From contig SCUM01000001.1 of the NCBI GenBank assembly GCA_004297215.1, positions 481,181 to 545,180 of the forward strand: 64,000 bases of DNA, read 5' to 3'. The DNA comes from Patescibacteria group bacterium. GTDB lineage: Bacteria; Patescibacteriota; Patescibacteriia; UBA9934; GWF2-40-263. The notes under the pieces are model-generated. The model searched no databases, was not told where the DNA came from, and saw only the letters and a program-made list of their open reading frames with translations. Positions 36,061 through 53,673 of this stretch are shown here, in pieces. Numbering within the stretch: the first letter of the stretch is position 1; the number at the start of each line of letters is the position of its first letter. The translations under genes were made by a program, and so were the position numbers.

Positions 36061-36978
36061 ATGCGCATCGACGAGGCGGCGCGGCTTTTCGTGGCCCACG
36101 TCCGGGATGAACGCCGATTCTCCCCGGCCACGGTAGTCAGCTATCGAGCCGAGCTACACCTGCTCGGCGTGTTCGCCGTGACTCGCGCCGTCGCCGATGT
36201 CGAGGGCGTCACGCACGTCCTGCTCGTCGAGTACCTCGGCTCCGGGGAGCCGCCCGTCGCCCCCTCGACCCGCAACCGCAAGCTCACGGTGCTGCGCAGC
36301 TTCTTCGCCTTCCTGGTGGATCAGAGGCTCGTCGCGGCGTCCCCCGCCCAGGACGTCCCCTTCGCCCGCGCCCCTCGGCGCGACGAGCCGAGCCTCTCGG
36401 CTCGCGACGTGGGCAAGCTCCTCGCCGTCCTCGCCAAGGAGGTCAGCTGGCGGGGCGTCCGTGACAGCTGCATCGTCCTCCTGCTCTTCCACACCGGGCT
36501 CCGGCTCTCGGAGATGCTCTCCCTCGACGTGGGCCAGGTCGACCTTGGCAACGCCCTCCTGCGCGAGGTGCGGCGCAAGGGAGGGCGCGAGCAGCCGCTT
36601 CCGCTCAACGCCGACGCCCTCTCGGCGCTCAAAGCGTGGCTGGAAGCCCGCAAGGGGCTTGTAATCGAGGGAGACGCCCTGTTCGTCTCACGCCTGGGCG
36701 GACGGCTGTCCAAGCGCGCCGTGCAAGGCCGGGTGAAGGAGGTCGGAGAGGCCGCAGGGGTCCCGTCCCTGCACCCCCACCTTCTGCGCCATAGCTTCGC
36801 CACCGAGGTGCTGGCCGCCGGTGGGAACCTCGAGGAGGTCCGGCGCCTGCTCGGGCACGCGAGCATCACGACGACGAGCCGGTACAGCCACCCGAGCGAC
36901 GAGGCGCTCCGGCGCGCCGTGGACCGCCTCTCGACCCCACCCAGCCCGCCCAGGCGTCCTCCGCGGGGAGCGCGATGA
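36061..36978 (+). CDS. Tyrosine recombinase (XerC/XerD-like, phage-integrase family).
   Basis: Catalytic R…HxxR…Y residues: LLFHTGLRLSEM, LLRHSFAT, LLGHASITTTSRYSH. Confidence 0.8.
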   Translation: MRIDEAARLFVAHVRDERRFSPATVVSYRAELHLLGVFAVTRAVADVEGVTHVLLVEYLGSGEPPVAPSTRNRKLTVLRSFFAFLVDQRLVAASPAQDVPFARAPRRDEPSLSARDVGKLLAVLAKEVSWRGVRDSCIVLLLFHTGLRLSEMLSLDVGQVDLGNALLREVRRKGGREQPLPLNADALSALKAWLEARKGLVIEGDALFVSRLGGRLSKRAVQGRVKEVGEAAGVPSLHPHLLRHSFATEVLAAGGNLEEVRRLLGHASITTTSRYSHPSDEALRRAVDRLSTPPSPPRRPPRGAR

Positions 36979-37127
36979 GAGCGCGGCACGACCGTGCGCT
37001 GTCTCGCGCGCTTGACTTCCTCCCGCGTAGTCTAGATGCTTCTGCGCCGTCGGTCGGGCGGCGCGCCGCACCCACGGAACCGCGGGGGCGAGTTCTCGTC
37101 AAGGTGCCGCACGACCCAGGAGGAAAG

Positions 37128-37892
37128 ATGAAGACACGCCATCGGATCGTTCAGGTTCTCGTCGCTGCGGCGACGCTCGTGGTGCTCGTGGCGTGCGGGA
37201 CCATCAAGACCACGCGCGATCGGTACGCGGTCGTCCCGTACGACGAGAAGGAGTTCCGCCAGGAGAAGGACGGCCTCATCGTCGAGTTCAAGCCGGTGGA
37301 TACCTACCCGCCCGAGCTCATCGTGAACCTCGCCTCGTGCTCCGAGACGTACCAGCAGCAGATGCAGCGCCAGAAGACCGGCGGGGAGGCGCCGCGCGAA
37401 GACGTGCTCATCCTCGATCCCCGTCGCGGCGAGTACTTCTCGCGCGTGACGGTCACCAACACGAGCGACCACGTCGTGCGCATGACCACCGGCGTCTTCA
37501 AGCTCTTCGACCCGGCGAACAACGCCAACGACGCCATGACCAAGGACGACATCGTCGCGTCCATCGAAGGGGCGCGCTCATGCGCCAACACCGCCGAGGC
37601 GACGGCCAAGGCGCGCAACATCAAGCTGTTCGACCGCGCCGTGGAGTTGGTGCCCAACAGCAGCTTCTCGGGCTGGATCGTGTTCAAGGTCGCGCCCGAG
37701 ATCATGTCGACGCCGGGCACATGGAAGGTCGCGCTGTATGAGCTGCCCATCGCCGTCGACGACGCCGGCAAGGTCACGAAGACGACTCGCTTCGAGATCC
37801 GCTCCATCTCGAAGAAGTTCGTCGACCGTTACGAGCAGGCCAACATGTTCGCCGCGCCACAGCTCGTCGGCACCGACGAGGTGACGCAATGA
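37128..37892 (+). CDS. Lipoprotein.
   Basis: RBS aggagg precedes the start. MKTRHRIVQVLVAAATLVVLVACG lipobox. Confidence 0.6.
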   Translation: MKTRHRIVQVLVAAATLVVLVACGTIKTTRDRYAVVPYDEKEFRQEKDGLIVEFKPVDTYPPELIVNLASCSETYQQQMQRQKTGGEAPREDVLILDPRRGEYFSRVTVTNTSDHVVRMTTGVFKLFDPANNANDAMTKDDIVASIEGARSCANTAEATAKARNIKLFDRAVELVPNSSFSGWIVFKVAPEIMSTPGTWKVALYELPIAVDDAGKVTKTTRFEIRSISKKFVDRYEQANMFAAPQLVGTDEVTQ

Positions 37893-38464
37893 GGCCGGCG
37901 ACCGAGCGGGCCACGCTCGCGTTCGCCCTTTGTGCACTGAGTGCGTGCGTCCCGACGCCGTCAAGCGGTGAGGGTGAAGGCGAGGGCGAGGGTGAAGGCG
38001 GGACTGGCGGAACAGGCCTGGCCCTTGGAGTAATCTGCATCAGTGCTGGCGGCGACGAGATCTGCCAGAATCAGGATGAGCTCATCGACCCAAGCATCAG
38101 CCGTTCCTCCGGTGGAGGGAACGTGTCGCTCTCCATCGAATTTGGCGACCCGTTCGATGGGCCCCTCAGCGCAGGCAGCTATGTATCGGGTCTGTATATC
38201 CTCGGCATTCCCGACGATGCTGAGGTGCCGTATGAATTCTTTGAGATTGGAAACGATGCACAGTGGTCAGTGTCGTGTGGTGCGTTGGCAACGAACAACC
38301 ACAACAATAACCCAGAAGATGGACATATATATTCATATTCATCATCATCGTTTGAAGGTGATTTTCATATGACTGAAAATGGATATGATCCATTTTCAGG
38401 ATCACTCGACGGGTGTCCGACTGTTGCGCCCGATCTGTCTGTTCGGTTCAATCTCATTCCGTAA
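37889..38464 (+). CDS. Lipoprotein with a poly(Gly-Glu) linker and a low-GC C-terminal patch.
   Basis: Lipobox ALCALSAC. Linker SSGEGEGEGEGEGG. ATGA overlap with the upstream gene. 38280-38400 is about 33% GC. Confidence 0.6.
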   Translation: MRPATERATLAFALCALSACVPTPSSGEGEGEGEGEGGTGGTGLALGVICISAGGDEICQNQDELIDPSISRSSGGGNVSLSIEFGDPFDGPLSAGSYVSGLYILGIPDDAEVPYEFFEIGNDAQWSVSCGALATNNHNNNPEDGHIYSYSSSSFEGDFHMTENGYDPFSGSLDGCPTVAPDLSVRFNLIP

Positions 38465-38487: not shown

Positions 38488-38510
38488 GTGCGCCACTTCG
38501 GGTGGCGCAC
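38488..38510 (-). terminator. GC-rich hairpin terminator between convergent genes.
   Basis: gtgcgccacttcgggtggcgcac forms a 9-bp perfect stem. The A-run aagaaaa on the plus strand gives a U-run for the minus-strand gene. Confidence 0.4.
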
Positions 38511-38520: not shown

Positions 38521-39843
38521 CTACCGAACCGCCATTACCAGCCTCCCAGCCGCGCGCTCCAGCTCTTCGCGCACGGACATGTTCCAGGTCGGGACGAGAT
38601 GCGCGGCTCTCGTGAGGGCATTCACGGCGTCGGCCAGCGTGTCGCCGGGCTCCTGCTTCCAGGCGTCGACGAGGGCGTTCACGACGGCGTCGCCGTCGCG
38701 TTCTCCGGGGACGACGACCTCCCTCGTCTCGACCCAGCGCTTGAACGTCGCCAACGGCTCGACCTTGAGCGTGCGGGCGTGGCCCCACGCGTCGAGGAAG
38801 AACCCGATCTTGGAGCGAGCCGCCTCGACGGCGACGGGGAGCGCGGCGCGGATGCGCTCGCGGTCGCCGCGGTGCACCTGGCTCGTGGTCTCGACGTCGC
38901 CCTCGGCCACGATGATGAGGTTGAGGCAGAGGTTTCGCAGTACGACAGCCGTGACGCGGATGCGCCCGCGTCCGGTGTCGTCGCACTCGAGCCTCACGCC
39001 GACGCGGAAGACGTCGCCTGCGGCGAGGTCGACGACATGCTCGGGCATCCACAGCGCCGTCGCCGTCAAACGTGCGTCCTCGTACAGCAGCTCGACGCGC
39101 GCATCGGCGAGCGCGGGCATCGCTGCCGTCACCACCTCATTCGCGTCGACGGAGGCGTACGTCGGCGTGACGACGGCGAAGGCCGACCTCCCACCGTCGT
39201 TCCGCCTGGTCCGGAGCACCACCGGCCGGGAGCTGCGCAGCTTGATCTGGGCGTTCACGTTCCTCGCGCGCAGCTCCGGCGTGCACAGCTCGGCGAGGTA
39301 CTTGGCTCCCGCGCCGAACCCGAGGTGCTGGCAGAACGCCTGGAACGGCCGCGCTTCGAGGTTCATCGAGGCGCCGTCGGCGTAGCAGAGGCGGCCGTCG
39401 GGTTGGAGCCACAGCTCCTCGGGCTTCACGGTGATGTCGCTGCGCCTCTCGTTGCGGATCCGCTCGACGAGCGCAGCGGCGGCCATCGGGAAGAGCGGGA
39501 GCGCTTCGACCTGCTCGCGCTCGACGCGGAAGTTGCGGTCCCCGAGCTCGACGACGCGCGTACCGGGCGCGAACAGCGGCGGAGGCAGGGCGAACCCGCT
39601 GCCGACGAGTTGGCGCTCCTGCTCCTCGATGCGCTCCTTCGCGACGAGCGAGAGCTTGCCGGCGGCGGTCGTCGCGGGGGCGAGGAGCGCGACCGCCTCG
39701 GCCGCTTCCTCCTCGTCCTTCACCGACACCAGCGCAGCGGTCTGGTCGCCCGCCTCTCGTGCCTGCCAGTACGTGCGCATGGCATCGGCCTGCTGTTCAT
39801 CCTGAATGAGCGTGGTCTCTCCAGCGATCGTGAGACTGAGCAT
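38521..39843 (-). CDS. Hypothetical protein (mobile-element-associated; possibly DUF932-like).
   Basis: 440 aa. RBS gaggag precedes the start. No confident family. Confidence 0.45.
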   Translation of the reverse strand: MLSLTIAGETTLIQDEQQADAMRTYWQAREAGDQTAALVSVKDEEEAAEAVALLAPATTAAGKLSLVAKERIEEQERQLVGSGFALPPPLFAPGTRVVELGDRNFRVEREQVEALPLFPMAAAALVERIRNERRSDITVKPEELWLQPDGRLCYADGASMNLEARPFQAFCQHLGFGAGAKYLAELCTPELRARNVNAQIKLRSSRPVVLRTRRNDGGRSAFAVVTPTYASVDANEVVTAAMPALADARVELLYEDARLTATALWMPEHVVDLAAGDVFRVGVRLECDDTGRGRIRVTAVVLRNLCLNLIIVAEGDVETTSQVHRGDRERIRAALPVAVEAARSKIGFFLDAWGHARTLKVEPLATFKRWVETREVVVPGERDGDAVVNALVDAWKQEPGDTLADAVNALTRAAHLVPTWNMSVREELERAAGRLVMAVR

Positions 39844-40050: not shown

Positions 40051-40212
40051 TCAGGCTTTGCAGCGAGAGCAGCGGGCGATACCGGTGCCGTCGACGGCGT
40101 GCTCGGCGTCGAGACGTCGGCGGCAGTCGCGGCAGCGGCCCGAGAGCATGCGCCGCACGCGGCGCCAGCGACGCATCCGCGCCTTCGCCGACGGGCGCTT
40201 CCTCGTCGTCAT
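40051..40212 (-). CDS. Small zinc-ribbon protein (53 aa; CxxC…CxxC).
   Basis: MTTRKRPSAKARMRRWRRVRRMLSGRCRDCRRRLDAEHAVDGTGIARCSRCKA. ATGA-coupled to the upstream mini-gene. Confidence 0.35.
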   Translation of the reverse strand: MTTRKRPSAKARMRRWRRVRRMLSGRCRDCRRRLDAEHAVDGTGIARCSRCKA

Positions 40213-40364
40213 ACGTTGCCGACCCGCTTGCAGCACCAGTAGCAGCGGGGCTTGCCAGCGACGGACTTGTACGGCCCGGTGATCTTCGCCTTGCACAGGC
40301 CGCACTTGGGTTTCGGCCGGTGGAACCGCTGGAATCCACGTCGGGGGGAGTACACGAAGCGCAT
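40209..40364 (-). CDS. Small zinc-ribbon protein (51 aa; CxxC…CxxCC).
   Basis: MRFVYSPRRGFQRFHRPKPKCGLCKAKITGPYKSVAGKPRCYWCCKRVGNV. Below the ORF-track size cutoff. Confidence 0.35.
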   Translation of the reverse strand: MRFVYSPRRGFQRFHRPKPKCGLCKAKITGPYKSVAGKPRCYWCCKRVGNV

Positions 40365-40380: not shown

Positions 40381-41220
40381 TCAGAACAAAGGCTGCTGAT
40401 CGTCGTCGACGGCCGACGTGTGCCAGACGGGGCCGAGGAGCTTCGCCGGCTCCTTGATGTCCGCGGCCTCGGCGAGGAGTGCGAACCAGAACAGGCGGGA
40501 GGTCGCTCCAGGGAGCGCGGCGCGCGCCGCCGCCCGAAGGCGATCGAGCCTGGGCTTCGTCGTCGTGAGGGTCAGCACCCGGTGCGATGCGCATCCCCCG
40601 AAGGCGAGCGCCCGCGTTCGCCTGGAGCGCCAGTACGCGGCGTATCGGTCGGCCATCCTCTTGGGCGCCACCGTCCCCATGTCAATCTCGACGTCGAACG
40701 CGTGGGCTTGCCCGCCGTGCTGGAGCGTGACGGAGGCGTCGGGGACGACGCGGACGCGACTGGCGTTCCAGCCCTCGCTCGGGGCACGGAACTCGACCTC
40801 CTCGGGAACCTGCTTCCAGCAGAGGAGTCCCACGTCGCGCGCGAGGTCGCGGTCGAGCGTCGTGAGCGCGAGGCGGAGGTCGTTGCGGCGCAGCGTATGG
40901 TCGAGGAACAGGCCGCTGCGCCGCTCGGACTCGGACACCGTCCGGCGCTCCGCCTCGGGACGCGTCTGCTCGAGGGCGCGGGATCCCTTCCTCGAGAGCG
41001 CCCACACCGTGCAGCTGCGCCGGTCGTATGGCCGCACCGGCATGAACACCTTGGTGACGAGCGACGAGGCGTGCAGGCGACGCAACCGCGCGGACGCGGC
41101 CTCCTCGGTCGGGAACCAGAGCGTCGCGAGCTGCGGCGTGGTCGCGAAGCGGCATGCGCCCAGCGTCGAGAGCACGTCGAGGTCGCGTTCGGTCGTGAGC
41201 AGCGTGATGGGCTTGCTCAT
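40381..41220 (-). CDS. Replication-relaxation family protein (Replic_Relax).
   Basis: MSKPITLLTTERDLDVLSTLGACRFATTPQLATLWF…, 279 aa. The ORF-track N-terminal extension is an out-of-frame shadow. Confidence 0.6.
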   Translation of the reverse strand: MSKPITLLTTERDLDVLSTLGACRFATTPQLATLWFPTEEAASARLRRLHASSLVTKVFMPVRPYDRRSCTVWALSRKGSRALEQTRPEAERRTVSESERRSGLFLDHTLRRNDLRLALTTLDRDLARDVGLLCWKQVPEEVEFRAPSEGWNASRVRVVPDASVTLQHGGQAHAFDVEIDMGTVAPKRMADRYAAYWRSRRTRALAFGGCASHRVLTLTTTKPRLDRLRAAARAALPGATSRLFWFALLAEAADIKEPAKLLGPVWHTSAVDDDQQPLF

Positions 41221-41780
41221 ACGGGGAGGTTGGATTCGAGCCGGGCAAGCACCTGCTCTTCGAGGACGAGGACGCCGCAGAGCACGGCGAGGAACAGGCG
41301 CGAGTGGTACCGGTCCTTCCCGTTGCGCTCGCGGCTGCCGGCCTCTTCGTCGAGGCGCGAGGCGAGCTCCGGGAACAGCTCGATGGCCGCGTGCGCCACG
41401 GCGAGGTTCGTCGCGAGCCCGGCCTTGGCGCGCACCATGGCCTTCGCGCGGACGTGCTGCGCGAGGCGCTTCTCGATGGCGATGCCGCGCCGGCCCGCCT
41501 CGCTCTCGATGAGTGCCAGTTGGGCGTCCATGGTCGCGTTCGTGTCCTTGGGCTTCTGGGTGACGACGGCGATCGTGGTGACCCGTCCCTCGTCGAGGAT
41601 CTCCCCGATCTGGGCGCCGAACTTTTGCTCGCGTCCCGACGCCGACGGGAGCTTGCGGACGTTCAGGACGAACTGGTCGAGGAGCCGCTCCGAGGTGACG
41701 AGAGCGAAGCCTACTTCCCGGCCGCTGGGTGCGATTGCCAGGCAAGTGGGCGTGCATGGCACGCGGCGCACGGGCCTCAT
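41217..41780 (-). CDS. Hypothetical protein.
   Basis: Coherent from MRPVRRVPCTPTCLAIAPSGREVGFALVTSERLLDQ… ATGA overlaps on both sides. Confidence 0.35.
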   Translation of the reverse strand: MRPVRRVPCTPTCLAIAPSGREVGFALVTSERLLDQFVLNVRKLPSASGREQKFGAQIGEILDEGRVTTIAVVTQKPKDTNATMDAQLALIESEAGRRGIAIEKRLAQHVRAKAMVRAKAGLATNLAVAHAAIELFPELASRLDEEAGSRERNGKDRYHSRLFLAVLCGVLVLEEQVLARLESNLPV

Positions 41781-42139
41781 ACCGAGAGGCCGCCCTCCTC
41801 GTCGTACAGCACCTCCTCGAACGCGGCGGTGAGGTCGTGCAGCACCACGAGCGGCGCCATATGGAACGAGCAGACGGGTGTGAGCGCGTCCTCGACGAGC
41901 GCACCGGCAGCAGCGTCGACGGCGATGAGCACCACGCGGTTGGGCCATCGGGCCTCCAGCATGCCGGTGACGGCCTGGGCAAGACGCTCGATCGACGGCT
42001 GGTCACGCGGCGCGACGACGAGGAACACCTTGCCGCCGGCTGCGGAACTCCGGGAGAAGATGACGCGTTCTGCCGTGACAGCGATGACGAGGTCGACCTC
42101 CTCGCCTGTCGCGGTCGCCGGTGATGTCGTGGGTTTCAT
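41777..42139 (-). CDS. Hypothetical protein.
   Basis: MKPTTSPATATGEEVDLVIAVTAERVIFSRS…; first gene of the minus-strand operon. Confidence 0.3.
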   Translation of the reverse strand: MKPTTSPATATGEEVDLVIAVTAERVIFSRSSAAGGKVFLVVAPRDQPSIERLAQAVTGMLEARWPNRVVLIAVDAAAGALVEDALTPVCSFHMAPLVVLHDLTAAFEEVLYDEEGGLSV

Positions 42140-42548: not shown

Positions 42549-42818
42549 ATGTCACGAACAATCCGATATCGGAACGCCATCAAGTCCCTGCGGCTCCTGA
42601 AGAAGCTGCGCCAGCGCGACCTGGCAGAGCGTGCAGGCTGCGTCCAGGCCGACATCTCGAAGTATGAGCACGGACGCACGGTGCCAGACCTGCTCATGGC
42701 CATGAAGATCGCCACGGCGCTCGGTGCCCCCGTGGAGCGCGTGTTCTACGACGTGAGCGACGTGGCCGTCGCAGAGGTCGGCGAGAACATCCTTGGCGCG
42801 CAATCTCCTCCAGCCTGA
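42549..42818 (+). CDS. XRE-family helix-turn-helix transcriptional regulator.
   Basis: MSRTIRYRNAIKSLRLLKKLRQRDLAERAGCVQADISKYEHGRTVPDLLMAMKIATALGAPVERVF; diverges from the minus-strand operon. Confidence 0.7.
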   Translation: MSRTIRYRNAIKSLRLLKKLRQRDLAERAGCVQADISKYEHGRTVPDLLMAMKIATALGAPVERVFYDVSDVAVAEVGENILGAQSPPA

Positions 42819-43575: not shown

Positions 43576-43649
43576 CCACCAGCAAGAGGACTCGTGGCGC
43601 TGAGCGATCCCCTCGTTTTTCGCGATTGCGTAGCCCGTGAGGATGCAAC

Positions 43650-45624: not shown

Positions 45625-45700
45625 TCAAGTCGCAAGGAAGCTCAATGACGAGACATCACACATGTATCCTACATGTAATATCCCATGTAATGTTTCTTGT
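45625..45700. promoter_or_regulatory. AT-rich divergent promoter region with direct repeats.
   Basis: tacatgtaatatcccatgtaatg contains catgtaat twice, followed by ttgacaacatgacagcatg; lies between divergent genes. Confidence 0.3.
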
Positions 45701-46605: not shown

Positions 46606-48549
46606 ATGCAGCAGTACCGCAATCGCGCCGACATCCTGGAGGCGATCCTCCAGGCGCTCGCGTCCCTCGACAAGGCCGGACGCCTGGCCGTCGCCACCGC
46701 GCCGACCCCGAAGGCCGCACGCGCGGCCGTCGAAGGGATGGAGCGCGAGAAGCGCCGCGACAATCGCCGCAAGGGGATCGAGGTGCCCGCCGACCTTCCT
46801 CGCGAACAGCACGCCGGTTGGCGGGCCGAGGTCGAGGAAGCGCCGGAGCGCGGCACGAAGGGCAAGCAGGAGACGCCGGCGTTCATCGTCGAGGCACAGA
46901 AGGCCGCCGTCGCGGCCGAGACGCAGCTGACGGCGTTGGGCACGGACCTCGGCCAGGTCGACACCGCTCTCGCCTACGCGCAAGAGCGCCGCATCCTCGG
47001 ACTGCGCCGCAGTCGCGTCGACGTCACCGCGCTCCTGAAGAAGCTGCGGCAGTACAAGCTCGTGAAATCCGTCGCCATCCTGCTCGAGCTCCTGCTCGGC
47101 CTCGCGGCGGTCGCCTCATACGAGGGGCTCCTCGACGTCTCTTCGGTCTCGGACGTCACCGCGGGGGAGTGGATCGAGACCATCCTGCTTGCCATTCCCG
47201 TCGACGGTGCGCTCGTGCTCGTCTCGTTCGGCCTTGCCTGGTGGCTGAAGAGGAAGGACATCACCAAGCCCACGGGCCTGCATGCCGCGGCGCTCCTCGG
47301 CGTCCTCGTCGTGCTCGTCGGCTGCCTCACGATCCTGCGGGTCGTCGCCGCCACGCCCGCCGACCATCTCGACGGCGCCGTGAGCGCGCTGGGAGCCATT
47401 GCCCTCACGATCCTGTCGGCCGCGGGCTCGGTCGCCACCGCGGTGGCCGTCGCGGTGACGAGCTTGCTCGCCGAACCCCTTCAGAAGGCGCTCGACGTGC
47501 ACAACGCGCTGGTGCGCGACCTCGACGAGGACGTGGCGCAGGCGCACAGGCAGCATGCGCCGCCGCACGCGAAGGCGACCGAGCTGCAGGAGATTGTCGA
47601 GCGCCCCGCGCGCTGGACGCTCACGTTCAACGCGGCCGCCAAGGCATACGCGCTGCGCTCCCGCGACGACGAGGAGCAGGTGAAGTTGCTCGGCGACCAG
47701 GCGGAGTCGCTCTCCGCACGCGTGCTCGAGCTGTCGAGGCCCAGCCGCGAGGACCTGGTCCGCGACCTCGAGCAATACGAGATCGTCGACCGCGACAAGC
47801 ATGGCGGCAACGGTGTCGCGAAGGGCATCGTGGCCGGGATCGCCGCATTCCTTCTCGCGCACGCCGCGGCGTGCCAGGAATCGGTGCCGCTGAACGCCGT
47901 GGTCATCTGCGACGCCACGGGCAAGCTGCCCGCATGCACGCCCTCGGTGCGCCAGGGCGTCGCTGCGCAGTGGGCGGGCACCGCCTTTGACCGTCCCGGC
48001 AGCGAGCTGCGCGTCATCCTCACCGCCGACACCTTCGAGAGCACCCGCTCCGTCGTCGTCGCTACCTCTCCCGAGCGCGAGAAGGGCGATCGCCGGCTCG
48101 CCCGCGTCCGATTCGTCCGCGAGGCCGTCGCGGACATGGGGAACCTCGACGTGCCCGGCGACGAGGGAGGCAGGAAGAACCGTTCCAACCTCGTCGCCGC
48201 CCTCGCGGTCGCGACGCTCGACGCCCGCGAGAAGCGCACGCCTCCCCAGCTCATCATCGCCACGGACGGCATGGTGGTCGTGGACCACGACAACGGCGAG
48301 CGGGATCCGACGGCATACGAGCGCATCGCCGGTCACCTCGGCGACATGGGCGTCGAGATCGACATGGGCCGGTTCGCGAGCGTCGTCGCCTGCGGTTTCC
48401 GCCGGGAGGGCTTGCCGCCCAGGCTCGTCGCCGCCCGGGACCGGTTCTGGGCGACGATCCTCGGTCGCTCGCCCAACGATCCTGTGCCCCCGTCCTCATG
48501 CGCAGGGCTGTTCAACGTGGGGAAGGGCGATCTGCGGGGGACGCCGTGA
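46606..48549 (+). CDS. Large membrane protein (647 aa) with a coiled-coil N-terminus and several TM helices.
   Basis: Hydrophobic helices ILLELLLGLAAVASY, LVLVSFGLAWWL, LLGVLVVLVGCLTIL, AIALTILSAAGSVATAVAVAVTSLLA. Confidence 0.55.
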   Translation: MQQYRNRADILEAILQALASLDKAGRLAVATAPTPKAARAAVEGMEREKRRDNRRKGIEVPADLPREQHAGWRAEVEEAPERGTKGKQETPAFIVEAQKAAVAAETQLTALGTDLGQVDTALAYAQERRILGLRRSRVDVTALLKKLRQYKLVKSVAILLELLLGLAAVASYEGLLDVSSVSDVTAGEWIETILLAIPVDGALVLVSFGLAWWLKRKDITKPTGLHAAALLGVLVVLVGCLTILRVVAATPADHLDGAVSALGAIALTILSAAGSVATAVAVAVTSLLAEPLQKALDVHNALVRDLDEDVAQAHRQHAPPHAKATELQEIVERPARWTLTFNAAAKAYALRSRDDEEQVKLLGDQAESLSARVLELSRPSREDLVRDLEQYEIVDRDKHGGNGVAKGIVAGIAAFLLAHAAACQESVPLNAVVICDATGKLPACTPSVRQGVAAQWAGTAFDRPGSELRVILTADTFESTRSVVVATSPEREKGDRRLARVRFVREAVADMGNLDVPGDEGGRKNRSNLVAALAVATLDAREKRTPPQLIIATDGMVVVDHDNGERDPTAYERIAGHLGDMGVEIDMGRFASVVACGFRREGLPPRLVAARDRFWATILGRSPNDPVPPSSCAGLFNVGKGDLRGTP

Positions 48550-49001
48550 AGAACGCGCTCGTCGTCATCAGCAGCCTCATGGTCGCTGCGGCAATCGGCC
48601 TGCCGCTCGGCCAGCCCATGCGCCTGGTGGCACTCATGGCAGTGGTCGGGGGCGCGTTCGCCTTGGTCGTCAGCGCGAAGGAATGGAGCGGCAAGCTCTT
48701 CGCCGTCGGCATCGGCCTTGCCGTCTTCGGCACGTTCTGGGACGGGCTGTCGTTCCAGCTCCACCAGCTGGCCATGCTGGCGCTGCACGATCCGTCGGTG
48801 GTCGTCGTGCTCGTCATCATGGCTCTCGCCGCGCTCGCGCTCCTGCTCGCCAAGGCGTGGGCGCGTGGCACGCACGCCAAGGCGTCGACTCCGCGGGCCC
48901 GCGAGCGCGCGCGCCTCGTCGAACCGCACGACGGCCCTAGCCGGATTCCGTCAGCGAGCGCGCCTGACGATCTCGGGCTGTTCGGACCGCGGCATGACTG
49001 A
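48546..49001 (+). CDS. Small polytopic membrane protein.
   Basis: GTG start overlaps the upstream stop (GTGA). 4 TM helices. Confidence 0.45.
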   Translation: MKNALVVISSLMVAAAIGLPLGQPMRLVALMAVVGGAFALVVSAKEWSGKLFAVGIGLAVFGTFWDGLSFQLHQLAMLALHDPSVVVVLVIMALAALALLLAKAWARGTHAKASTPRARERARLVEPHDGPSRIPSASAPDDLGLFGPRHD

Positions 49002-50409
49002 CGACCTCGTCCCCATCGGGTTCTCCTTCGACGGGGGGCCGTTCGTCCTCCCCATCGAGCGGGTGCTGCGCCACGCGCTGGTGACGGGCGCGACTGGCGC
49101 AGGGAAGACCGCCTTCGTCGTCGGCGCCGTGCTCTCGATCGCCAAGCGGTCGCCCTCGACCAGGTTCGTGCTCGTCGACCCCAAGGGAGAGCTGCTCGAC
49201 ACCATGCGGACGTTCGTGGGCGCCCTCGGGGAGCGGCCACCCTTCCTCGCCCGCCAGCTCCTGGTGATCGACCCGTTCGCTGCGGGGATGACGACGCCCA
49301 TGAACCTGCTCGCGCCGGAGCCGGGGCTCGAGCGCTCGGTGCAGGCGAACGTGATCGTCTCCTCGCTCTGCGAGCTGTTCGACGGCGGGTTCGGCCCGCG
49401 CATGATGTCGGCGCTCACGACCTGCGTGCGCGCCGCCATCGAGGCCGGTGGCACCTTGCTCGACGTGCTCGAGCTGCTGCGCCGCCCCGCATACGGGGCA
49501 CGCCTTGCCTCGCTCATCGCGGATGCGGAGGTGCGCCGCGCGGTCGTCGAGGACTTTCCGGAAGAGGCGGAGGCGACGCGGGCAGCGTTGCGTGCCCGAC
49601 TCGAATGGCTGGTGTCGTCCAGGCCGCTGCGCGCCTGCCTGTGCGCCAAGGACGCCGCCACTGGCACCCAGATGCTCGAGCACGGCCTCACGCTGGTCTC
49701 CCTCGGCCCGCCAAGCGGGATGGGCGCCGCCGGAAAGGCGATGGCGGCGCTCATCATGGCCAAGATCTCGGCGGCGGTCTTCATGCGGGCGGTCGACCAG
49801 GCCGCAGACGTCCTCGTCGTCATCGACGAGGCGCCCGAGGTGCTGCGGCGCAGCGCCGCCGACGAGATGGAGCGCCTGCTCTCGATGGCCCGCTTCAAGC
49901 GAGTGGCCGTCTGGTCCCTTGCCCAGGGCATGCAGCAGGTCTCATCGTCGTCGGTGACCCTCGCGCGCTCGCTCGCGACCAACGCCTCGCTGCGAGCGTG
50001 CTTCCGCGGTTCGTCCCAGGACGTCGCCGACATCGCCCATGCCCTGCCGGTCACGGGCAGGATGCGCGACCCGCATCAAAGAGACCGGCTGCTGTCGGTC
50101 GCGCAAGAGCGTGCGCTTCTCGTCGAGCGTACCGTCTCGCTACCGCCCCGCTGCGCGCTGTTCGTCGAGGCCGGCGTCGGCGCGACCCTCCTGCGCACGC
50201 CGACGCTCCCGTTCGAGGAAGCGCGCGAACGGTTCGAGGCGCTGCCGGCGGCGGAGCGGGAGCGCGTGCGGTACGGGAGCAACTCCGTTCAAGTCGACGA
50301 GCTGCTGCGCACGGCAAAGCTCGCCGCATTGTCGGTCACCACGGCCACTGCGAGAGGTGCTCGGCCGGCAGCATCGACGAAGCACCGTCCGCGCCTGGTG
50401 CTGCCATGA
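48994..50409 (+). CDS. P-loop NTPase of the TraD/VirD4/HerA-FtsK-like superfamily (candidate DNA-transfer ATPase).
   Basis: Walker A VTGATGAGKTAFVV, Walker B VLVVIDEAPEVL, arginine-finger region. 471 aa. Overlaps the upstream gene. Confidence 0.6.
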   Translation: MTDDLVPIGFSFDGGPFVLPIERVLRHALVTGATGAGKTAFVVGAVLSIAKRSPSTRFVLVDPKGELLDTMRTFVGALGERPPFLARQLLVIDPFAAGMTTPMNLLAPEPGLERSVQANVIVSSLCELFDGGFGPRMMSALTTCVRAAIEAGGTLLDVLELLRRPAYGARLASLIADAEVRRAVVEDFPEEAEATRAALRARLEWLVSSRPLRACLCAKDAATGTQMLEHGLTLVSLGPPSGMGAAGKAMAALIMAKISAAVFMRAVDQAADVLVVIDEAPEVLRRSAADEMERLLSMARFKRVAVWSLAQGMQQVSSSSVTLARSLATNASLRACFRGSSQDVADIAHALPVTGRMRDPHQRDRLLSVAQERALLVERTVSLPPRCALFVEAGVGATLLRTPTLPFEEARERFEALPAAERERVRYGSNSVQVDELLRTAKLAALSVTTATARGARPAASTKHRPRLVLP

Positions 50410-50753
50410 CCCGCGCCCTCGTCGCCGCCCTTGCCGACCTGCATGGCGGCGCCTTCGTCGCCGGCACGCTGGTGGTGGGCGCCCTGCTCCCCGTGGCAAC
50501 CCTTATCGACGGGATCTGCATTCTCGTCCGGCTGCGTCGCCGTGCCCGCGTCCTTGCCGCTTCGCGTGCCCTCTGTCCTGCCGGCCACGAGGTCGACCTC
50601 GTCGGGGGCTGGCGATGCGAGGGCTGCGGCGCCGGCTTCGACGGGCACGGCCTTGATCGCTGCCCGTGCTGCGGTGCCGTGGCCGCCCGCGTCACATGCG
50701 CGTGCGGGCGGTACGTCGCGAATCCGCTCTTCGCCGACCTGGACGCGCCGTGA
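50406..50753 (+). CDS. Small TM protein with a C-terminal Cys-rich zinc ribbon.
   Basis: TM helix FVAGTLVVGALLPVATLIDGICILV. CPAGH…CEGCGAG…CPCCG…CACG. ATGA overlap. Confidence 0.45.
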   Translation: MTRALVAALADLHGGAFVAGTLVVGALLPVATLIDGICILVRLRRRARVLAASRALCPAGHEVDLVGGWRCEGCGAGFDGHGLDRCPCCGAVAARVTCACGRYVANPLFADLDAP

Positions 50754-51667
50754 GAAAGCGCGAGCAACGCCAGGACCCCGGTGGCGCGCGCCTCATGCCC
50801 CGCGACCTGCGCGCGCTCGAGCTCGTGGCGCTGGCGCAGCCGGTCACCACCTCCCAGCTCGCCCGGTACCTGGGGATGAGCCTGCCCATGGCGCGCCGGC
50901 GCGTGCGCGCCCTGCGCGACCTCGCTCTCGTGAACGTCGCCGCGCCCCGGCTGGATGCGGAGAACAACGTCCTGCTCGCAAAGCGCGGGAGGCGCCTGCT
51001 CGTGGAGGAACGAGGCTTCGACATGGACGCCATCGCCGTCATGCGGGGGATCTCGAAGATCCACCTGGCCCACCACGCTGCCGGCGTCAGCTTCTTCGTG
51101 GGGCTCACGAACGCCTGCGAGCGCTCGACGAAGGTGTCTCTCGCGCGCTTCGCCTTCGAGGCCGAGCTGCGACGCCTCGCGGGCGGAAGCCCCGAAGTCC
51201 AGGTGCCCGATGCCGTCGCCGTCGTTCAAGGCCGCGGCGAGCGTCTTGCCCTCGCCATCGAGATCGACATGGGGAGCGAGAACCCGTCGTTCGTCGTCAC
51301 CCGCAAGGCCCACCCGTACGCGCGGATGCATGCCTGCGGCGCGCCGCTCTTGGGCGAGGCGTGCTGGGTCGTCGCGTTCGTCGTGACGAGCGAGCGCCGT
51401 CGCAACCGCCTCGTCAGCGCGTTCCACGAGGCCGCGGTCCCCGAGGGGATCCTGTACCTCGCCGTCGGCCCAGGGCTCGACGAGCAGACGCTGCTCACCG
51501 ACGGCTGGTGGACGACTCGCACGTCGCCGGACGGCGAGCATGCGCGGCTCGTTGAGGAGTCGCCTTTCGCGCCCGTGCTGACGGACCGTTCCGACCGTCG
51601 TCACGGCCAGGCGCCTGCGGACCTGATGGGTTCCGCGGGCTTGCCCGGTCGAGGGGTACGCGGATGA
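50750..51667 (+). CDS. Replication-relaxation family protein, second paralog.
   Basis: MPRDLRALELVALAQPVTTSQLARYLGMS… is homologous to the first paralog's N-terminus. GTG start overlaps the upstream stop; an alternative ATG is at 50795. Confidence 0.55.
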   Translation: MRKREQRQDPGGARLMPRDLRALELVALAQPVTTSQLARYLGMSLPMARRRVRALRDLALVNVAAPRLDAENNVLLAKRGRRLLVEERGFDMDAIAVMRGISKIHLAHHAAGVSFFVGLTNACERSTKVSLARFAFEAELRRLAGGSPEVQVPDAVAVVQGRGERLALAIEIDMGSENPSFVVTRKAHPYARMHACGAPLLGEACWVVAFVVTSERRRNRLVSAFHEAAVPEGILYLAVGPGLDEQTLLTDGWWTTRTSPDGEHARLVEESPFAPVLTDRSDRRHGQAPADLMGSAGLPGRGVRG

Positions 51668-52240
51668 CGCGCCCCCTCGCTCCCCATCATCACCCTCTTG
51701 CCGCCGTGCCTGTCGCGGTGGCGAACAACCTCGTGGAGGGGGCGACCAGGCACCTGCGGGTCGATTTCTTTCACGAGCCGTGGCCGGTCGGTGCGGGGTC
51801 GCCCGCTCCGGTCGTTAGCGCGCTTCGCGTGCCTTGTCCGATCCGCTCCGGCGGCGAGGACCGGCGCCGCGCCCGGGCTCCGTCGTCATCGACGGACGCC
51901 TTCGCCTGTCCGTCTGACGCGCACGTCTTCACGGACGTGCGCGCGGATGGCTGGCGTTCGCATGACGGTGGTGGGGAGCAAGTTCCAACGGCGTCAAAGG
52001 GTCGTACGCCGGCGCGCCCGCTCCTCCGCTCCCTCGCTGGCTCCTTCCTTTCCCGAAGCGCCCTGGTGCGATCCGCACGCTTCGTCGAGGAGGCCCCGGC
52101 GCCGAGCGGCACCATGCACGCCGTCGTCGACGGGCCGGCGCCATCCTCGTCGTCTGGAAGGCAGGGACGGGTACGCGAGCGCGCGGCGACAGGCGGGTGC
52201 TCCGCACCGGCCGGCCCACGGTTTTCGGTTGGGGCATTGC

Positions 52241-52477
52241 ATGGCGACGGATGAACCGACCGATCTGCTCACGGGCGACGGTCTCCCGGCCGTCCTCACC
52301 GTCGACGAGGTCGCCGGCCTGCTGCGGGTGAACCGCAAGACGGTGTACGCGGCGGTCGCACAGGGGGCGATCCCTGGCGTGGTGCGCGTGGGCGGCACCA
52401 TCCGCGTCTGCCGCGACGCCGTGCTAGCCTGGCTCGCAGGTGAAGGTCGCGTCTCGTCGTCACGGAGGGATCCATGA
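52241..52477 (+). CDS. Excisionase-family HTH DNA-binding protein (Xis/AlpA-like).
   Basis: LTVDEVAGLLRVNRKTVYAAVAQGAIPGVVRVGGTIRV; ATGA overlap with the integrase. Confidence 0.65.
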   Translation: MATDEPTDLLTGDGLPAVLTVDEVAGLLRVNRKTVYAAVAQGAIPGVVRVGGTIRVCRDAVLAWLAGEGRVSSSRRDP

Positions 52478-53673
52478 CGGTGAGAAAAGAGAAGCGGCGC
52501 GACCCGGCGACGGGACGCGTCCGCGAGTTTTGGATGGTCGACGTCGACGTGGAGTTGCCCGACGGGAAGCGCACGCGGGTGCGCAAGGCTTCCCCGGTGC
52601 AGGCGAAGCGCGACGCCGAGCGATACGAGACGGAGCTGCGCCGGGCGATCCTCGACGGCAGCTACGGGAAGGAAGAGGAGGTCGAGAAGGTCGTGCCGCT
52701 CATCAAGGACTTCGTCCCCGCGTTCATCGAGGGCCACTGCCGCGCCGAGCAGCTGAAGCCCTCGACGATCGCCTCGGTGCGCCAGGTGCTCACGCACCGC
52801 ATTGTGCCGAGGATCGGGGACAAGCGGCTCGACGAGGTGACAAGCAGCGACGTGCAGCGCATCAAGGCGGAGCTGTCGTCGCTCTCGAAGAAGACGGTGA
52901 ACAACACGCTCGCGTGCCTGCGCGTGATGCTGCGCAAGGCAGCCGAGTGGGACGTCATCAAGGACGTCCCGTGCGCGATCAAGCTATTGAAGGTGCAGAA
53001 GGAGGAGATGAAGTTCCACGACTTCGACGACTACGAACGCCTCGTCGAGGCCGCGGGACGCGTGGACGCGCGAATCCAGCTCGCCATCCTGCTCGGCGGC
53101 GAGGCGGGGCTGCGCATGGGGGAGATCGCAGCGCTCGAATGGGGCCGCATCGTGTGGGCGAGGAACACGATCGTGGTCGCCGCCTCCGATTGGCGGGGAC
53201 ACGTGACGAAGACGAAGAGCGGCAAGGTCCGCGAGGTGCCGATGACGACGAGGCTCGCTGCCGCGCTCCGGGCGCACAGCAAGCTGCGTCGGCTCGACAA
53301 CGACCTCGTGCTGATGCTCGACAACGGGAGGGCGTTTCATCGGGACGCTTTCCGCAAGGGCATCATGCGCGTGGAGCGACGGGCGGGGCTCGAAGTGACG
53401 GGAAGGGTCCATATCCTCCGTCACACGTTCTGCGCTCACCTCGCGATGCGCGGCGCGCCGGCGAAGGCGATCCAGGAGCTCGCCGGGCACGCCGACCTGT
53501 CGACCACGATGGGGTACATGCACCTGACGCCGTCGGCCCGCGCGGCGGCCATCGGCCTGCTCGAACGACGAGGACAACCGCAGGGTTACGGCAACCTGAC
53601 GGCAATGGAAGGCACGAACGCAGAGGTTCTGGCGGTCGGCGAAAAGAAAACCCTCGGTTTCCCGAGGGCTTAG
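52474..53673 (+). CDS. Tyrosine-type site-specific integrase (phage-integrase family).
   Basis: SAM-like N-domain plus catalytic R…HxxR…Y: LLGGEAGLRMGEI, ILRHTFCAHL, LAGHADLSTTMGYMH. Confidence 0.85.
   Translation: MTVRKEKRRDPATGRVREFWMVDVDVELPDGKRTRVRKASPVQAKRDAERYETELRRAILDGSYGKEEEVEKVVPLIKDFVPAFIEGHCRAEQLKPSTIASVRQVLTHRIVPRIGDKRLDEVTSSDVQRIKAELSSLSKKTVNNTLACLRVMLRKAAEWDVIKDVPCAIKLLKVQKEEMKFHDFDDYERLVEAAGRVDARIQLAILLGGEAGLRMGEIAALEWGRIVWARNTIVVAASDWRGHVTKTKSGKVREVPMTTRLAAALRAHSKLRRLDNDLVLMLDNGRAFHRDAFRKGIMRVERRAGLEVTGRVHILRHTFCAHLAMRGAPAKAIQELAGHADLSTTMGYMHLTPSARAAAIGLLERRGQPQGYGNLTAMEGTNAEVLAVGEKKTLGFPRA

Follow-up and report, generated by a model that had tools for sequence, protein, structure and literature searches.

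The window, a 64-kb stretch of DNA, carries between 36061 and 53673 a block of genes whose features are collected in Table 1. An earlier, sequence-only reading had described this block as a mobile element, and its gene inventory held up well. Every listed gene lies at or near the position it had been given and each of the named domains was confirmed; the XRE repressor, the IS4 insertion, the ATGA-coupled xis-int pair, the lipoproteins and the zinc-ribbon mini-proteins are all there, as is the six-gene minus-strand operon, whose genes are also called in a second, independent assembly made from that sample (L051, L052). The tight packing was likewise found, with overlaps of 4 or 8 nt at many junctions (p126/p187, p187/RR1, zr1/zr2, mem647/mem151, mem151/ATPase, ATPase/zrTM and xis/int).

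Table 1. Features of the element and its surroundings, with positions in the 64-kb window
Feature	Position	Strand	Remarks
Imperfect inverted sites ACGGCGC-N4-GCATCTA	~35988-36012, 37033-37060		on both sides of the XerC-like gene
XerC-like tyrosine recombinase	36061-36978	+	Phage_integrase 5.7e-37 plus SAM_1 (Pfam)
Lipoprotein genes	37128-37892 and 37889-38464	+	lipoboxes LVAC, LSAC
Bidirectional terminator hairpin	~38488-38510
p440, DUF932-like	38521-39843	-	last core-operon gene; left edge of conserved backbone
zr2, zinc-ribbon mini-protein	40051-40212	-	CxxC...CxxC
zr1, zinc-ribbon mini-protein	40209-40364	-	CxxC...CxxC; overlaps zr2
RR1, Replic_Relax (MOBC-family, PD-(D/E)XK)	40381-41220	-	PF13814, 1e-24, 88 bits vs cut-off 25
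p187	41217-41780	-	head of RR1 operon
p120	41777-42139	-	head of RR1 operon
XRE-type repressor	42549-42818	+	HTH_3, 2.6e-10; divergent from RR1 operon
p231	42880-43575	+	conserved; a 260-aa ORF in the sequence-only reading
IS4-family insertion sequence	43607-44973	+	intergenic
IS4 12-bp terminal inverted repeats	43607-43618 and 44962-44973		ATCCCCTCGTTT
IS4-type DDE transposase	43702-44958	+	DDE_Tnp_1, 3.9e-16
p173	45088-45609	-	gene call from L052
p220/p272	45853-46515	+	gene call from L052; precedes transfer operon
mem647, 647 aa	46606-48549	+	5 predicted TM segments; C-terminal Cys-rich domain with vWA-like motifs
mem151	48546-49001	+	3 predicted TM segments
ATPase	48994-50409	+	GATGAGKT and VVIDEAP; conserved C-terminal PRLVLP tail
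zrTM, 115 aa	50406-50753	+	N-terminal TM segment; C-terminal Cys-rich zinc ribbon
RR2, Replic_Relax (MOBC-family) with N-terminal wHTH	start 50696 or 50795, end 51667	+	PF13814, 9.8e-12, 46 bits; HTH_20
Conserved, highly base-paired element, about 435-440 nt	51782-52216	+	between RR2 and xis
Invariant 19-mer	51784-51802	+	CCGGTCGGTGCGGGGTCGC; 5' edge of folded element
Excisionase (xis)	52244-52477	+	HTH_17
Tyrosine integrase (int)	52474-53673	+	Pfam 2.4e-28; ATGA overlap with xis
Degenerate direct copy of 19-mer region	53825-53844	+	GCCGTTCGGTGCAGGGTCAC; 150 nt downstream of int

The conserved backbone begins at the 440-aa gene and ends with the integrase (~38.47-53.7 kb). Its gene order recurs in metagenome genomes, at the loci L001/L045, L003 and L050 and in part at L004 and L049. 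The loci that share it have different flanks and non-homologous integrases; in L003 the backbone integrase adjoins a tRNA-Arg, and L047 holds a relative of the core module with an integrase beside the tmRNA. GC content is 0.69-0.71 in the element against 0.63 in host housekeeping genes, and the L004 module is likewise richer in GC than its own flanks. The block is a modular integrated mobile element and not core DNA, in agreement with what had been claimed for it, the backbone sitting in differing genomic contexts in L001/L045, L003, L050 and L004. It has four parts: a core module (XRE switch, p231 and the operon p120-p187-RR1-zr1-zr2-DUF932), a DNA-processing/export module (wHTH regulator, mem647, mem151, VirB4/VirD4-clade ATPase, zrTM and RR2), a folded cis element and a xis-int cassette. 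The core module also stands alone in integrative islands of Myxococcota. Most proteins of the element fall in no described family, and a search of 72,556 plasmids gave no close relative of RR1, RR2 or the ATPase.

Of the bounds first drawn for the element, the integrase end coincides with that of the backbone and the XerC end does not, as the XerC-like gene and the lipoprotein genes lie, on these comparisons, outside the conserved part. The recombinase scores 200 bits on the NCBIfam XerC model and 178 bits on XerD, both under cut-off. With a GC content of 0.715 its gene resembles the element, and it is 77% identical in amino acids (79% in nucleotides) to a gene 7 kb past p433 in L045, relative to which its orientation is reversed. 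The lipoproteins have no homologues in L001, L003 or L045, the second of their genes has a GC content of 0.55, and the pair is variable cargo or flank. Positions 36061 and 53673 themselves are gene ends, not demonstrated element ends.

Within the core module, identities to the related loci are 64-65% for zr1 and zr2 (L001 and L003; zr1 is also found in L048), 45-51% for RR1 (L003 and L048) and 50-52% for p231 (L001, L003 and L048; 34% in L047), the last having no Pfam or PDB match. The p187 and p120 genes are syntenic in L001, L003 and L048 and agree with the L051 gene calls; profile searches that included Pfam gave no family for either. The position of the XRE repressor is kept in L001, L003, L047 and L048. 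On the NCBIfam MobC model RR1 reaches 18.8 bits, against a cut-off of 200. To the right of this module, no clear TSD was found at the IS4 insertion, and two short-read contigs of the same sample both stop at most ~130 nt from its ends, which is consistent with IS4 being a repeat. Ahead of the transfer operon, p220/p272 is a probable winged-helix regulator, judging by its C-terminus, which is 34% identical to a Trans_reg_C-bearing protein of 467 aa at the same position in L003.

The export module contains three putative membrane proteins. The TM segments of mem647 are predicted at about residues 152-170, 193-211, 229-247, 265-283 and 404-422, and its C-terminal domain is probably extracytoplasmic; a CDxTG motif, a TDG motif and five Cys residues are conserved in four homologues. 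It is 66% identical to its counterpart in L003 and 27-30% in L001 and L050, with only two database matches and no family or PDB match in searches that included Pfam and NCBIfam. Homologues of mem151 occur in L001 and L003, and the L052 call overlaps mem647 by 4 nt. Identities for zrTM are 63-69% in L001/L003 and 38-46% in L004, L050 and L049, and for RR2, which has no NCBIfam match, 56-58% in L001/L003 and 40-44% in L004/L050. The order ATPase-zrTM-RR2 is invariant in 6/6 loci, with zrTM always between the other two, and this core is found in MAGs labelled as three different phyla.

Structurally the ATPase model matches VirB4 best, followed closely by HerA and DptH, and TrwB/VirD4 is also close. 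By its modelled fold the protein is, as had been supposed, a conjugation-type NTPase of the VirB4/VirD4(T4CP)/HerA clade and not a housekeeping enzyme. Its own score against TrwB_AAD_bind is under the cut-off; its homologues match the T4CP-specific domains TrwB_AAD_bind and TraG-D_C. No TM segment is predicted in it, whereas VirD4-type coupling proteins have an N-terminal TM anchor. The element shares with actinomycete AICEs of the pSAM2 type its small size, a tyrosine integrase with an excisionase and a single translocase-like ATPase. Nevertheless, the analogy that had been drawn with minimal actinomycete elements fails, since the ATPase is nearest to VirB4, TrwB/VirD4 and HerA and is FtsK/TraB-like only in the P-loop, and the relaxases present are of the MOBC type.

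The ATPase also matches the defence HMM mad8 (1.8e-14), and together with a PD-(D/E)XK protein, RR2, and the membrane partners it might form a HerA-nuclease type of anti-phage system, carried as cargo on an integrative island, rather than a transfer apparatus. We regard this as very unlikely. The other MADS components are absent, the T4CP-specific matches of the ATPase homologues point away from defence, and RR2 belongs to Replic_Relax/MOBC and not to a defence nuclease family, with no significant PADLOC nuclease match.

The replication-relaxation genes had been described as duplicated. There are indeed two PF13814 proteins, although the word is misleading because RR1 and RR2 share only ~25% identity; both clades keep the H, PD and ExD motifs. 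The two genes belong to two old, separable modules and did not arise as a duplicate pair. PF13814 corresponds to the MOBC class of relaxases (PMC5357655, Table 1); its fold is PD-(D/E)XK, or restriction-endonuclease-like (PMC3424549; PMC12857230). Both proteins are predicted to be restriction-enzyme-like and to nick DNA, with RR2 as the candidate relaxase for the transfer module.

The name of the Pfam family, ‘replication-relaxation’, and the plasmid replication reported for some of its members (PMC3424549) suggest another role, in which RR1 and RR2 would be replication initiators or regulators, the ATPase would serve partition or segregation, and the whole would be an integrated plasmid-like replicon or a decaying remnant that no longer moves. 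In keeping with this, L048 has an RR1 core module without any ATPase, a 3'-end remnant of p433 in L045 shows tandem decay of such elements, and an IS4 has inserted here. Nor were the att direct repeats proposed for the element found: comparison of the flanks gave no direct repeat of at least 14 nt, and hence neither att repeats nor exact ends, and neither an excised form nor an empty site was seen. However, the backbone ORFs are all intact, being 55-75% identical to their L003 counterparts without frameshifts, the IS lies between genes, xis and int are undamaged, and the ATPase fold is of the secretion/translocase type and not ParA-like. We consider an immobile replicon or remnant unlikely. 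The integrase shares no homology with the L001 and L003 integrases, which indicates that the integration module can be exchanged.

The folded cis element is a new finding, having been missed in the sequence-only reading. As RNA it has an MFE of -309 kcal/mol and a z of -8.4, compared with background values between +1.5 and -4.0 across 35-55 kb, and the plus strand folds more strongly than the minus strand both as RNA and as DNA. In an alignment limited to three lineages the fold has 182 pairs, with compensatory changes in 30; the paired fraction of cells is 92%, whereas slid controls reach 39-51%. The L004 counterpart has a z of -6.7, and there is no match in Rfam. L001-3 and L004 carry exact copies of the 19-mer, which is thereby kept between elements whose ATPases share only 39% identity. 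A pattern search of the 64 kb returned two matches only (0.25 expected by chance), although the pattern was built from those same two copies and the test is not independent; an earlier search with a 13-mer from the first copy alone had found the degenerate copy at 2 mismatches. Candidate roles for the folded element are those of an oriT, a single-strand origin or a structured leader, and in the last case it could be an RNA leader of xis-int. A folded cis element with an invariant 19-mer, placed between RR2 and xis-int, would be needless for a defence operon.

The host appears to be a reduced-genome bacterium of the Patescibacteria, members of the ultra-small candidate phyla radiation (CPR), a possibility that had been raised before. 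Its nearest named NusA relatives are from Ca. Buchananbacteria, Magasanikbacteria, Parcubacteria, Nomurabacteria and Paceibacterota, and this grouping makes a reduced genome probable. An 842-kb contig encodes a protein labelled Patescibacteria that matches the ATPase at 100% identity, and the host YidC has only 245 aa. Searches of the element with Pfam, NCBIfam and other profiles detected neither a second ATPase nor a VirB4 N-terminal domain, nor any other MPF family, and no T4SS was found within the window. The element apparently encodes no VirB4-based mating channel, and the self-transmissibility that had been contemplated for it is not supported, there being no VirB4-type second ATPase or recognisable mating-pair-formation gene. 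By the counts in one survey of Patescibacteria, chromosomal T4SS without a relaxase are common, MOBC is the commonest relaxase class (58/109) and 39 relaxase genes adjoin a t4cp gene (PMC12102498).

It is conceivable that mem647-mem151-ATPase-zrTM-RR2 is by itself a full DNA-export machine, pushing DNA across a single-membrane CPR envelope to be taken up by the competence system of the recipient. The model here is ICEth1/TdtA transjugation in Thermus thermophilus, where an integrative element in the same size range of ~14-15 kb (14 kb, tRNA-integrated) likewise has no T4SS, and where one HerA/FtsK-type ATPase plus restriction-like nucleases are enough for donor function (PMC5365140). Consistent with this, the module has been kept as one unit that includes two or three dedicated membrane proteins, the outward Cys-rich, vWA-like domain of mem647 could touch a partner cell, the ATPase most resembles in fold VirB4, which is the signature motor in mating channels, and the ATPase-zrTM-RR2 core spans three labelled phyla. 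On the other hand, no membrane component is detectably similar to known channel proteins, and L004 has ATPase-zrTM-RR2 without a detectable mem647. ICEth1 also differs in having NurA and a type IIG restriction enzyme, no Replic_Relax protein, and generalized transfer (PMC5365140). We consider autonomous export improbable.

On balance we lean towards an integrative mobilizable element that brings a relaxase and a coupling-type ATPase of its own and most likely moves from cell to cell with outside help. From the gene content, family and fold assignments, synteny, conserved structure and host affinity we infer how each step might proceed. Xis and Int would excise the element as a circle. RR2, with a wHTH and a PD-(D/E)XK domain like pAD1 TraX and CloDF13 MobC, would bind and nick the folded region, acting as oriT. 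The ATPase may be anchored at the membrane via mem151, zrTM or mem647, a partner being proposed since the ATPase itself lacks a TM segment, and would be the element's own coupling motor, as MobB is for CloDF13. It would pass the DNA to a mating channel encoded outside the element, the most plausible being a chromosomal MPF-FATA-like T4SS, of the kind widespread in Patescibacteria. In the new cell the folded single strand would prime complementary-strand synthesis, and Int would integrate the element.

In CloDF13 the coupling role belongs to the T4CP-like MobB, and TraW of pAD1 is TraG-like; Francia and Clewell are said to have described, in 2002, a large inverted repeat in the pAD1 oriT. As in CloDF13 MobB/MobC and pAD1 TraW/TraX, a PD-(D/E)XK relaxase (PF13814/MOBC) with an N-terminal wHTH is encoded next to its own coupling-type ATPase, and the mating channel comes from elsewhere (PMC5357655; PMC12857230). 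In contrast to those systems, sequence similarity is very low, the ATPase lacks a TM anchor and has the conserved partners mem647, mem151 and zrTM, and the element is integrative, with a second, divergent Replic_Relax gene, a ~435-nt folded cis element, a CPR host and no close relative among the 72,556 plasmids. It also fits the relaxase/t4cp pair category that Quinonero-Coronel et al. 2025 counted in Patescibacteria (PMC12102498); the survey is confined to counts and describes neither the architecture of such elements nor their integration module, cis element or relatives in other phyla. Firmicutes IMEs (Coluzzi et al. 2017, PMC5357655) similarly combine an exchangeable integrase-excisionase module with a relaxase and sometimes a coupling protein, and have no mating-pair-formation genes, whereas the proteins here fall mostly outside described families, in another host phylum and with accessory membrane proteins.

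Genes were called across the GC-rich window (GC 0.65) from third-position GC and ORF lists, and then scanned against Pfam, NCBIfam, PHROGs and PADLOC. The gene inventory of the sequence-only reading was borne out by these calls and scans, and the features are collected in the table.

Features of the block, its surroundings and its counterparts (window coordinates unless another locus is named)
Feature	Position	Strand	Remarks
Giant ORF	6124-15627		3167 aa
Low-GC stretch	20001-22000		GC 0.50-0.56
nusA, yidC	25419-27428		yidC directly after nusA
Giant ORF	30262-35226		1654 aa
XerC-like segment	35985-37105		L045: 18150-19180
XerC-like tyrosine recombinase	36061-36978		first gene of block
Two lipoproteins			after XerC-like gene
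Operon p120, p187, RR1 (first Replic_Relax), two overlapping zinc-ribbon mini-proteins, p440 (440 aa, DUF932-like)	RR1 40381-41220; p440 38521-39843	minus
XRE repressor			divergent from minus-strand operon
p231			conserved, 231 aa
IS4-family insertion	43607-44973		12-bp terminal repeats
Small gene		minus	followed by probable winged-helix regulator
Intergenic region	45575-46025		upstream of regulator p220/p272
Operon mem647 (5 TM), mem151 (3 TM), soluble Walker A/B ATPase, zrTM (TM + zinc ribbon), RR2 (second Replic_Relax)	ATPase 48994-50409; RR2 ~50700-51667	plus
ATPase C-terminus	50389-50409	plus
p196 ORF	51664-52254		rejected as gene
Folded element	51782-52216		435 nt; L003 13139-13580; L001 13160-13601; L004 ~13385-13970
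GCTCC repeats	within ~52.0-52.1 kb		conserved pyrimidine-rich run
HTH_17 excisionase, tyrosine integrase (xis-int)	52244-53673		ATGA overlap
Degenerate 19-mer copy	53825-53844		direct; 150 nt downstream of integrase
Second putative mobile element	57181-59736		4 kb to the right
p433-like remnant	L045: 11977-12107		130 nt

Comparison with related loci indicates that the block is a mobile element, as the sequence-only reading had proposed, with limits other than those first drawn; its backbone was found in differing genomic contexts and is not a syntenic core. Thirteen relatives of the ATPase were detectable among 5.8 billion clustered proteins, while a scan of genome collections gave two close loci and ∼40 actinomycete loci with P-loop-only similarity, a metagenome scan gave two loci, and a word-based search with the membrane protein mem647 gave two matches. 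All the way from the 440-aa gene to the second Replic_Relax gene, with an integrase next, gene order is the same on a contig from Logan (L001/L045) and in a MAG from groundwater that is labelled Deltaproteobacteria (L002/L003), to whose element that of the window is 55–75% identical. The right-hand module recurs as mem647, a small membrane protein, ATPase, zrTM and RR2 in L050, as ATPase, zrTM and RR2 in a MAG labelled Gammaproteobacteria (L004), and as ATPase and zrTM on a 2-kb contig (L049). The left-hand module (XRE, p231, p120-like, p187-like, RR1, zinc ribbon and DUF932-like genes) stands beside its own xis-int pair without the ATPase module in a Myxococcota MAG (L048) and, in reduced form, beside tmRNA in a 9.4-Mb genome (L047). 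Flanking genes are unlike one another in the window, L045, L003, L004 and L050, and the integrases of L001 and L003, the latter adjoining a tRNA-Arg, are non-homologous to that of the window. As a result of this separate recurrence and of the non-homologous integrases, the element is taken to be made of at least two separable modules and an exchangeable integration cassette. In the window the cassette consists of an integrase (Phage_integrase, 2.4e-28) and an excisionase (HTH_17, 9.3e-13), which supply the recombinase and directionality factor of a generic integrative mobilizable or conjugative element.

The xis-int pair lies on the right side of the block, and the left end proposed at the XerC-like and lipoprotein genes is not supported. 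The left modules of L045 and L003 share 93% nucleotide identity, ending 40 nt past the stop codon of p433 (the 440-aa gene at these loci) at a terminator hairpin; on this basis the conserved backbone of the window has its left boundary at ∼38.47–38.52 kb. Neither lipoprotein has a counterpart at the other loci compared. The XerC-like gene, with a 77%-identical counterpart in L045 that lies 7 kb from the backbone in the opposite relative orientation, may be counted a candidate member of the element outside the conserved backbone. The gene lies between imperfect inverted sites, which read ACGGCGCCGTT-GCATCTA on one strand and ACGGCGCAGAA-GCATCTA on the other; against the arrangement in L045, its segment is inverted relative to a conserved 70-nt flank, with the breakpoint exactly at GCATCTA, and variable secreted or lipoprotein genes adjoin the gene in both. 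This arrangement suggests an att core, or a recombinase whose own segment can invert. At L045, a fragment with 78% identity, left over from the 3′ end of a p433-like gene and keeping a separate terminator, lies 0.7 kb past the intact p433; it is evidence that related elements have accreted in tandem and decayed there.

The att repeats anticipated at the ends of the block did not appear: exact and near-exact comparison of 29.3–38.6 kb with 53.6–57.2 kb gave no direct repeat of at least 14 nt joining the two flanks and chance-level matches only, and the tRNAs closest to the block lie 6 kb to its left. A 16-mer abutting tRNA-Leu was rejected, its partner copy being inside a lipoprotein gene. In L003, a repeat of the tRNA-Arg 3′ end was sought in the 780 nt available on the left and nothing was found. 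The modules have a GC of 0.69–0.71 against 0.63 for the neighbouring housekeeping genes, so composition supports a foreign origin; in L004 the module is likewise above its flanks, and in L003 element and host match.

Both Replic_Relax proteins are members of PF13814 (88.1 bits for RR1 and 45.8 bits for RR2, gathering cut-off 25.3), which is listed as the MOBC relaxase class (PMC5357655, Table 1). The fold is that of PD-(D/E)XK restriction endonucleases, usually fused to an HTH (PMC3424549), and TraX of pAD1 and MobC of CloDF13 are the members that have been studied (PMC12857230). RR2 and its L050 homologue match the wHTH families HTH_20, MarR_2 and HTH_5, and H108, P160-D161 and E178-x-D180 are invariant in eight sequences from both the RR1 and RR2 clades, so that the wHTH and the PD-(D/E)XK-type acidic residues of MOBC are present. 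With the NCBIfam MobC model NF041423, RR1 scored 18.8 bits against a cut-off of 200 and RR2 gave no match, which places neither in that subfamily. The two had been described as duplicated genes; at ∼25% identity, and each far closer to its positional counterparts at other loci, they are instead old paralogues in separate modules.

The identification of the ATPase as a transfer-type motor held up. In the fold comparison it gave 27.4 with the VirB4 C-terminal domain, 26.4 with DptH, 23.3 with TrwB (352 residues aligned), 22.9 with HerA, 20.7 with DotL, 20.4 with Cagbeta, 17.0 with FtsK and 15.9 with TcpA, and the model has a RecA-like NBD with an inserted all-alpha domain, as in TrwB and as expected of a coupling protein (T4CP). 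Its Pfam score for TrwB_AAD_bind is 17.5 against a cut-off of 20.5, and several homologues do match the T4CP domains TrwB_AAD_bind and TraG-D_C: P0006, P0008 and P0009 carry PF10412, and P0010 and the L050 protein carry PF12696 (23.1 against 22). The modelled fold and the domains of the homologues thus indicate a motor of the VirB4/VirD4/HerA clade, neither a housekeeping NTPase nor an actinomycete TraB. It is like a T4CP in fold but differs in lacking a TM anchor: none was predicted at the N-terminus, which starts MTDDLVPIGF, and the sole hydrophobic stretch above threshold (residues 249–267) falls within the soluble part of the model. Most family members share a terminal P-R-L-V-L-P on a C-terminal tail that is otherwise disordered, and these residues look like a short docking motif. 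In Actinomycetota, ∼40 MAG loci (L005–L044, mostly Streptosporangiaceae and uncultured Actinomycetota) encode proteins that are 28–33% identical to the ATPase over its first ∼130 residues. A HerA–nuclease-type defence system is a rival reading of the operon, since PADLOC matches the ATPase to mad8 at 1.8e-14; however, none of the other nine proteins scanned matched a defence family, leaving the MADS/HerA-type system without its other components, and a defence operon would have no need of the cis element described below.

The membrane partner mem647 has a cytoplasmic N-terminal part of ∼150 aa, a four-helix membrane bundle, a loop of ∼120 aa, a fifth TM and a 225-aa C-terminal domain with five conserved cysteines and vWA-like CDxTG and TDG motifs; this domain has no detectable relatives in any library searched. 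Searches of Pfam, NCBIfam, PHROGs, PADLOC and PDB profiles gave no usable match for p231, mem647, p187 or p120, and p440 has a single weak phage match. Judged by these searches, mem647, zrTM, p231, p187, p120 and the DUF932-like fold are without characterised relatives, and most backbone proteins lie outside described families.

In the interval separating RR2 from xis, stretches of nearly perfect DNA identity to L003/L001 stand out in the window against a ∼70%-identical background, and the 435-nt segment there is predicted to fold as an extended multi-helix hairpin. As plus-strand RNA its MFE is −309 kcal/mol, against −249 ± 7 for shuffled sequences (z −8.4), and the minus strand gives z −5.5; with DNA parameters the values are −7.0 and −3.9, respectively. 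Sliding 450-nt windows over 35–55 kb ranged from +1.5 to −4.0. Folding the three sequences together gives a consensus with 182 pairs, of which 30 show compensatory double changes, and 92% of cells are paired, compared with 39–51% when partners are slid by 1–3 columns. None of 500 column shuffles reached the observed values, these counts representing effectively two lineages. Independent support comes from a third lineage, L004 (ATPase 39% identical), where a region of ∼470–580 nt at the same position folds with z −6.7 and the 19-mer that starts the element at its 5′ end, CCGGTCGGTGCGGGGTCGC, is identical. No Rfam family matches the folded element, and with its invariant 19-mer it appears to be a new conserved nucleic-acid structure, hitherto undescribed. 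The overlapping p196 ORF is probably spurious, given its atypical GC3, the absence of a called gene in L002, a tblastn frame different from that of L001, and the conserved base pairing. The second-strongest folding z in the block (−4.0) is that of the intergenic DNA ahead of p220/p272, the regulator.

Because a relaxase gene is adjacent, the strands are asymmetric and the motif is invariant, our best guess is that transfer would start at the folded element, a candidate oriT that may double as a single-strand origin. The same plus-strand fold immediately before xis-int could alternatively be a structured leader RNA of that pair. A pattern search of the window gave two matches only, the 19-mer region and its degenerate copy, with 0.25 expected by chance, although the pattern was derived from both copies and so is not independent of them. 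Two similar 20-mers thus bracket the folded element, xis and int, and the copy could be a relic of oriT–oriT or cassette recombination, or due to chance.

Self-transmission, as first suggested, is not supported. A T4SS-type ICE would carry a VirB4-family ATPase beside the T4CP together with MPF proteins, and a search of every ORF with Pfam, NCBIfam and PHROGs found a single ATPase and no MPF family; the element is therefore not an ICE. The likeness to actinomycete elements (AICEs) also fell away. These have an FtsK/SpoIIIE-type TraB translocase, transfer double-stranded DNA independently of a relaxase, carry Rep/Pif/Spd genes and live in actinomycetes, whereas the window element has no such translocase, no Rep, Nudix or Spd family (Pfam) and carries MOBC-type genes, and the NusA of its host groups with Patescibacteria. 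One rival is an autonomous ‘push’ system like that of Thermus ICEth1/TdtA (PMC5365140), which would likewise have a single motor. More speculatively, mem647, mem151, the ATPase, zrTM and RR2 with the ∼440-nt folded origin might form an undescribed, self-sufficient DNA-export system that moves DNA between ultra-small CPR (Patescibacteria) epibionts and their possible high-GC hosts (Myxococcota or ‘Deltaproteobacteria’); it would explain both the similarity to the ‘Deltaproteobacteria’ MAG element and a GC above that of the CPR host, and we consider it improbable.

The best-supported reading, by analogy, is an integrative mobilizable element (IME) with its own putative relaxase and coupling-type motor and a mating channel encoded elsewhere. 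It would work like an IME with a MOBC relaxase, as an analogue, known here from sequence, of CloDF13 MobB/MobC or pAD1 TraW/TraX. Xis and Int would excise the element, RR2 would nick within the folded region, the ATPase would dock through mem151, zrTM or mem647, and transfer would proceed through the external mating channel, after which the folded strand would prime synthesis before integration. We infer every one of these steps, from excision to integration, and the argument for mobility is drawn from gene order and sequence comparison. The IME reading fits a survey of Patescibacteria in which a chromosomal MPF-FATA-like T4SS, of unknown purpose, is carried by nearly all and almost always lacks a relaxase; among the relaxases, MOBC is the class met most often (58/109), and 39 relaxase genes adjoin a t4cp gene (PMC12102498). 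A plasmid-like or decaying island is a further rival. RR1, RR2 and the ATPase have no close relative in 72,556 plasmids, and the ORFs of the element are intact, with one intergenic IS insertion.

A large part of bacterial diversity is patescibacterial and, to our knowledge, descriptions of mobile elements from this group are very few. A concrete 15-kb element with a candidate origin of transfer, a relaxase-like nuclease and a coupling-type ATPase makes it testable whether CPR bacteria give or take up DNA by conjugation, and would be a concrete instance of a CPR bacterium with DNA mobility of the conjugation type. The closest relatives are in MAGs labelled as other phyla and the GC exceeds that of the host, pointing to cross-phylum exchange if the labels are right.

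The host is probably a CPR bacterium, as judged from its NusA neighbours and short-type YidC (245 aa). Proteins labelled Patescibacteria (locus tags EPO34_) match the ATPase, p440 and mem647 at 100% identity. Among 1.8 billion representatives, the nearest named relatives of NusA are from Ca. Buchananbacteria, Ca. Magasanikbacteria, two Parcubacteria, Ca. Nomurabacteria and Ca. Paceibacterota, the sole exception being one partial Solirubrobacteraceae sequence. These two proteins argue against a binning error behind that label, a suspicion raised by the GC-rich sequence, by giant surface proteins rich in Cys and by relatives of the element in Myxococcota. A chimeric assembly is a possible alternative explanation of the host assignment; housekeeping genes are on the same contig within 10 kb of the block. 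Two short-read contigs (L051 and L052, sample SRR8426588) carry genes identical to those of the block, with the same calls, in the integrated arrangement only, and each breaks off on one side within ∼130 nt of the IS ends, which fits repeat-induced assembly breaks.

Several neighbouring features were also apparent. The short yidC, and not infB, directly follows nusA, an unusual order consistent with a rearranged, reduced genome. The giant ORFs resemble myxobacterial surface proteins, yet are in a CPR genome, and in the smaller there are 168-nt tandem repeats of FG-GAP-like type together with numerous Cys-rich motifs of the CDGxDNDCDG type. GC skew is strongly negative in the low-GC stretch. 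To the right of the block, a UPF0175-family antitoxin-like gene, a 167-aa gene and a large serine recombinase (Resolvase, Recombinase and Zn_ribbon_recom) probably represent a second, separate mobile element.
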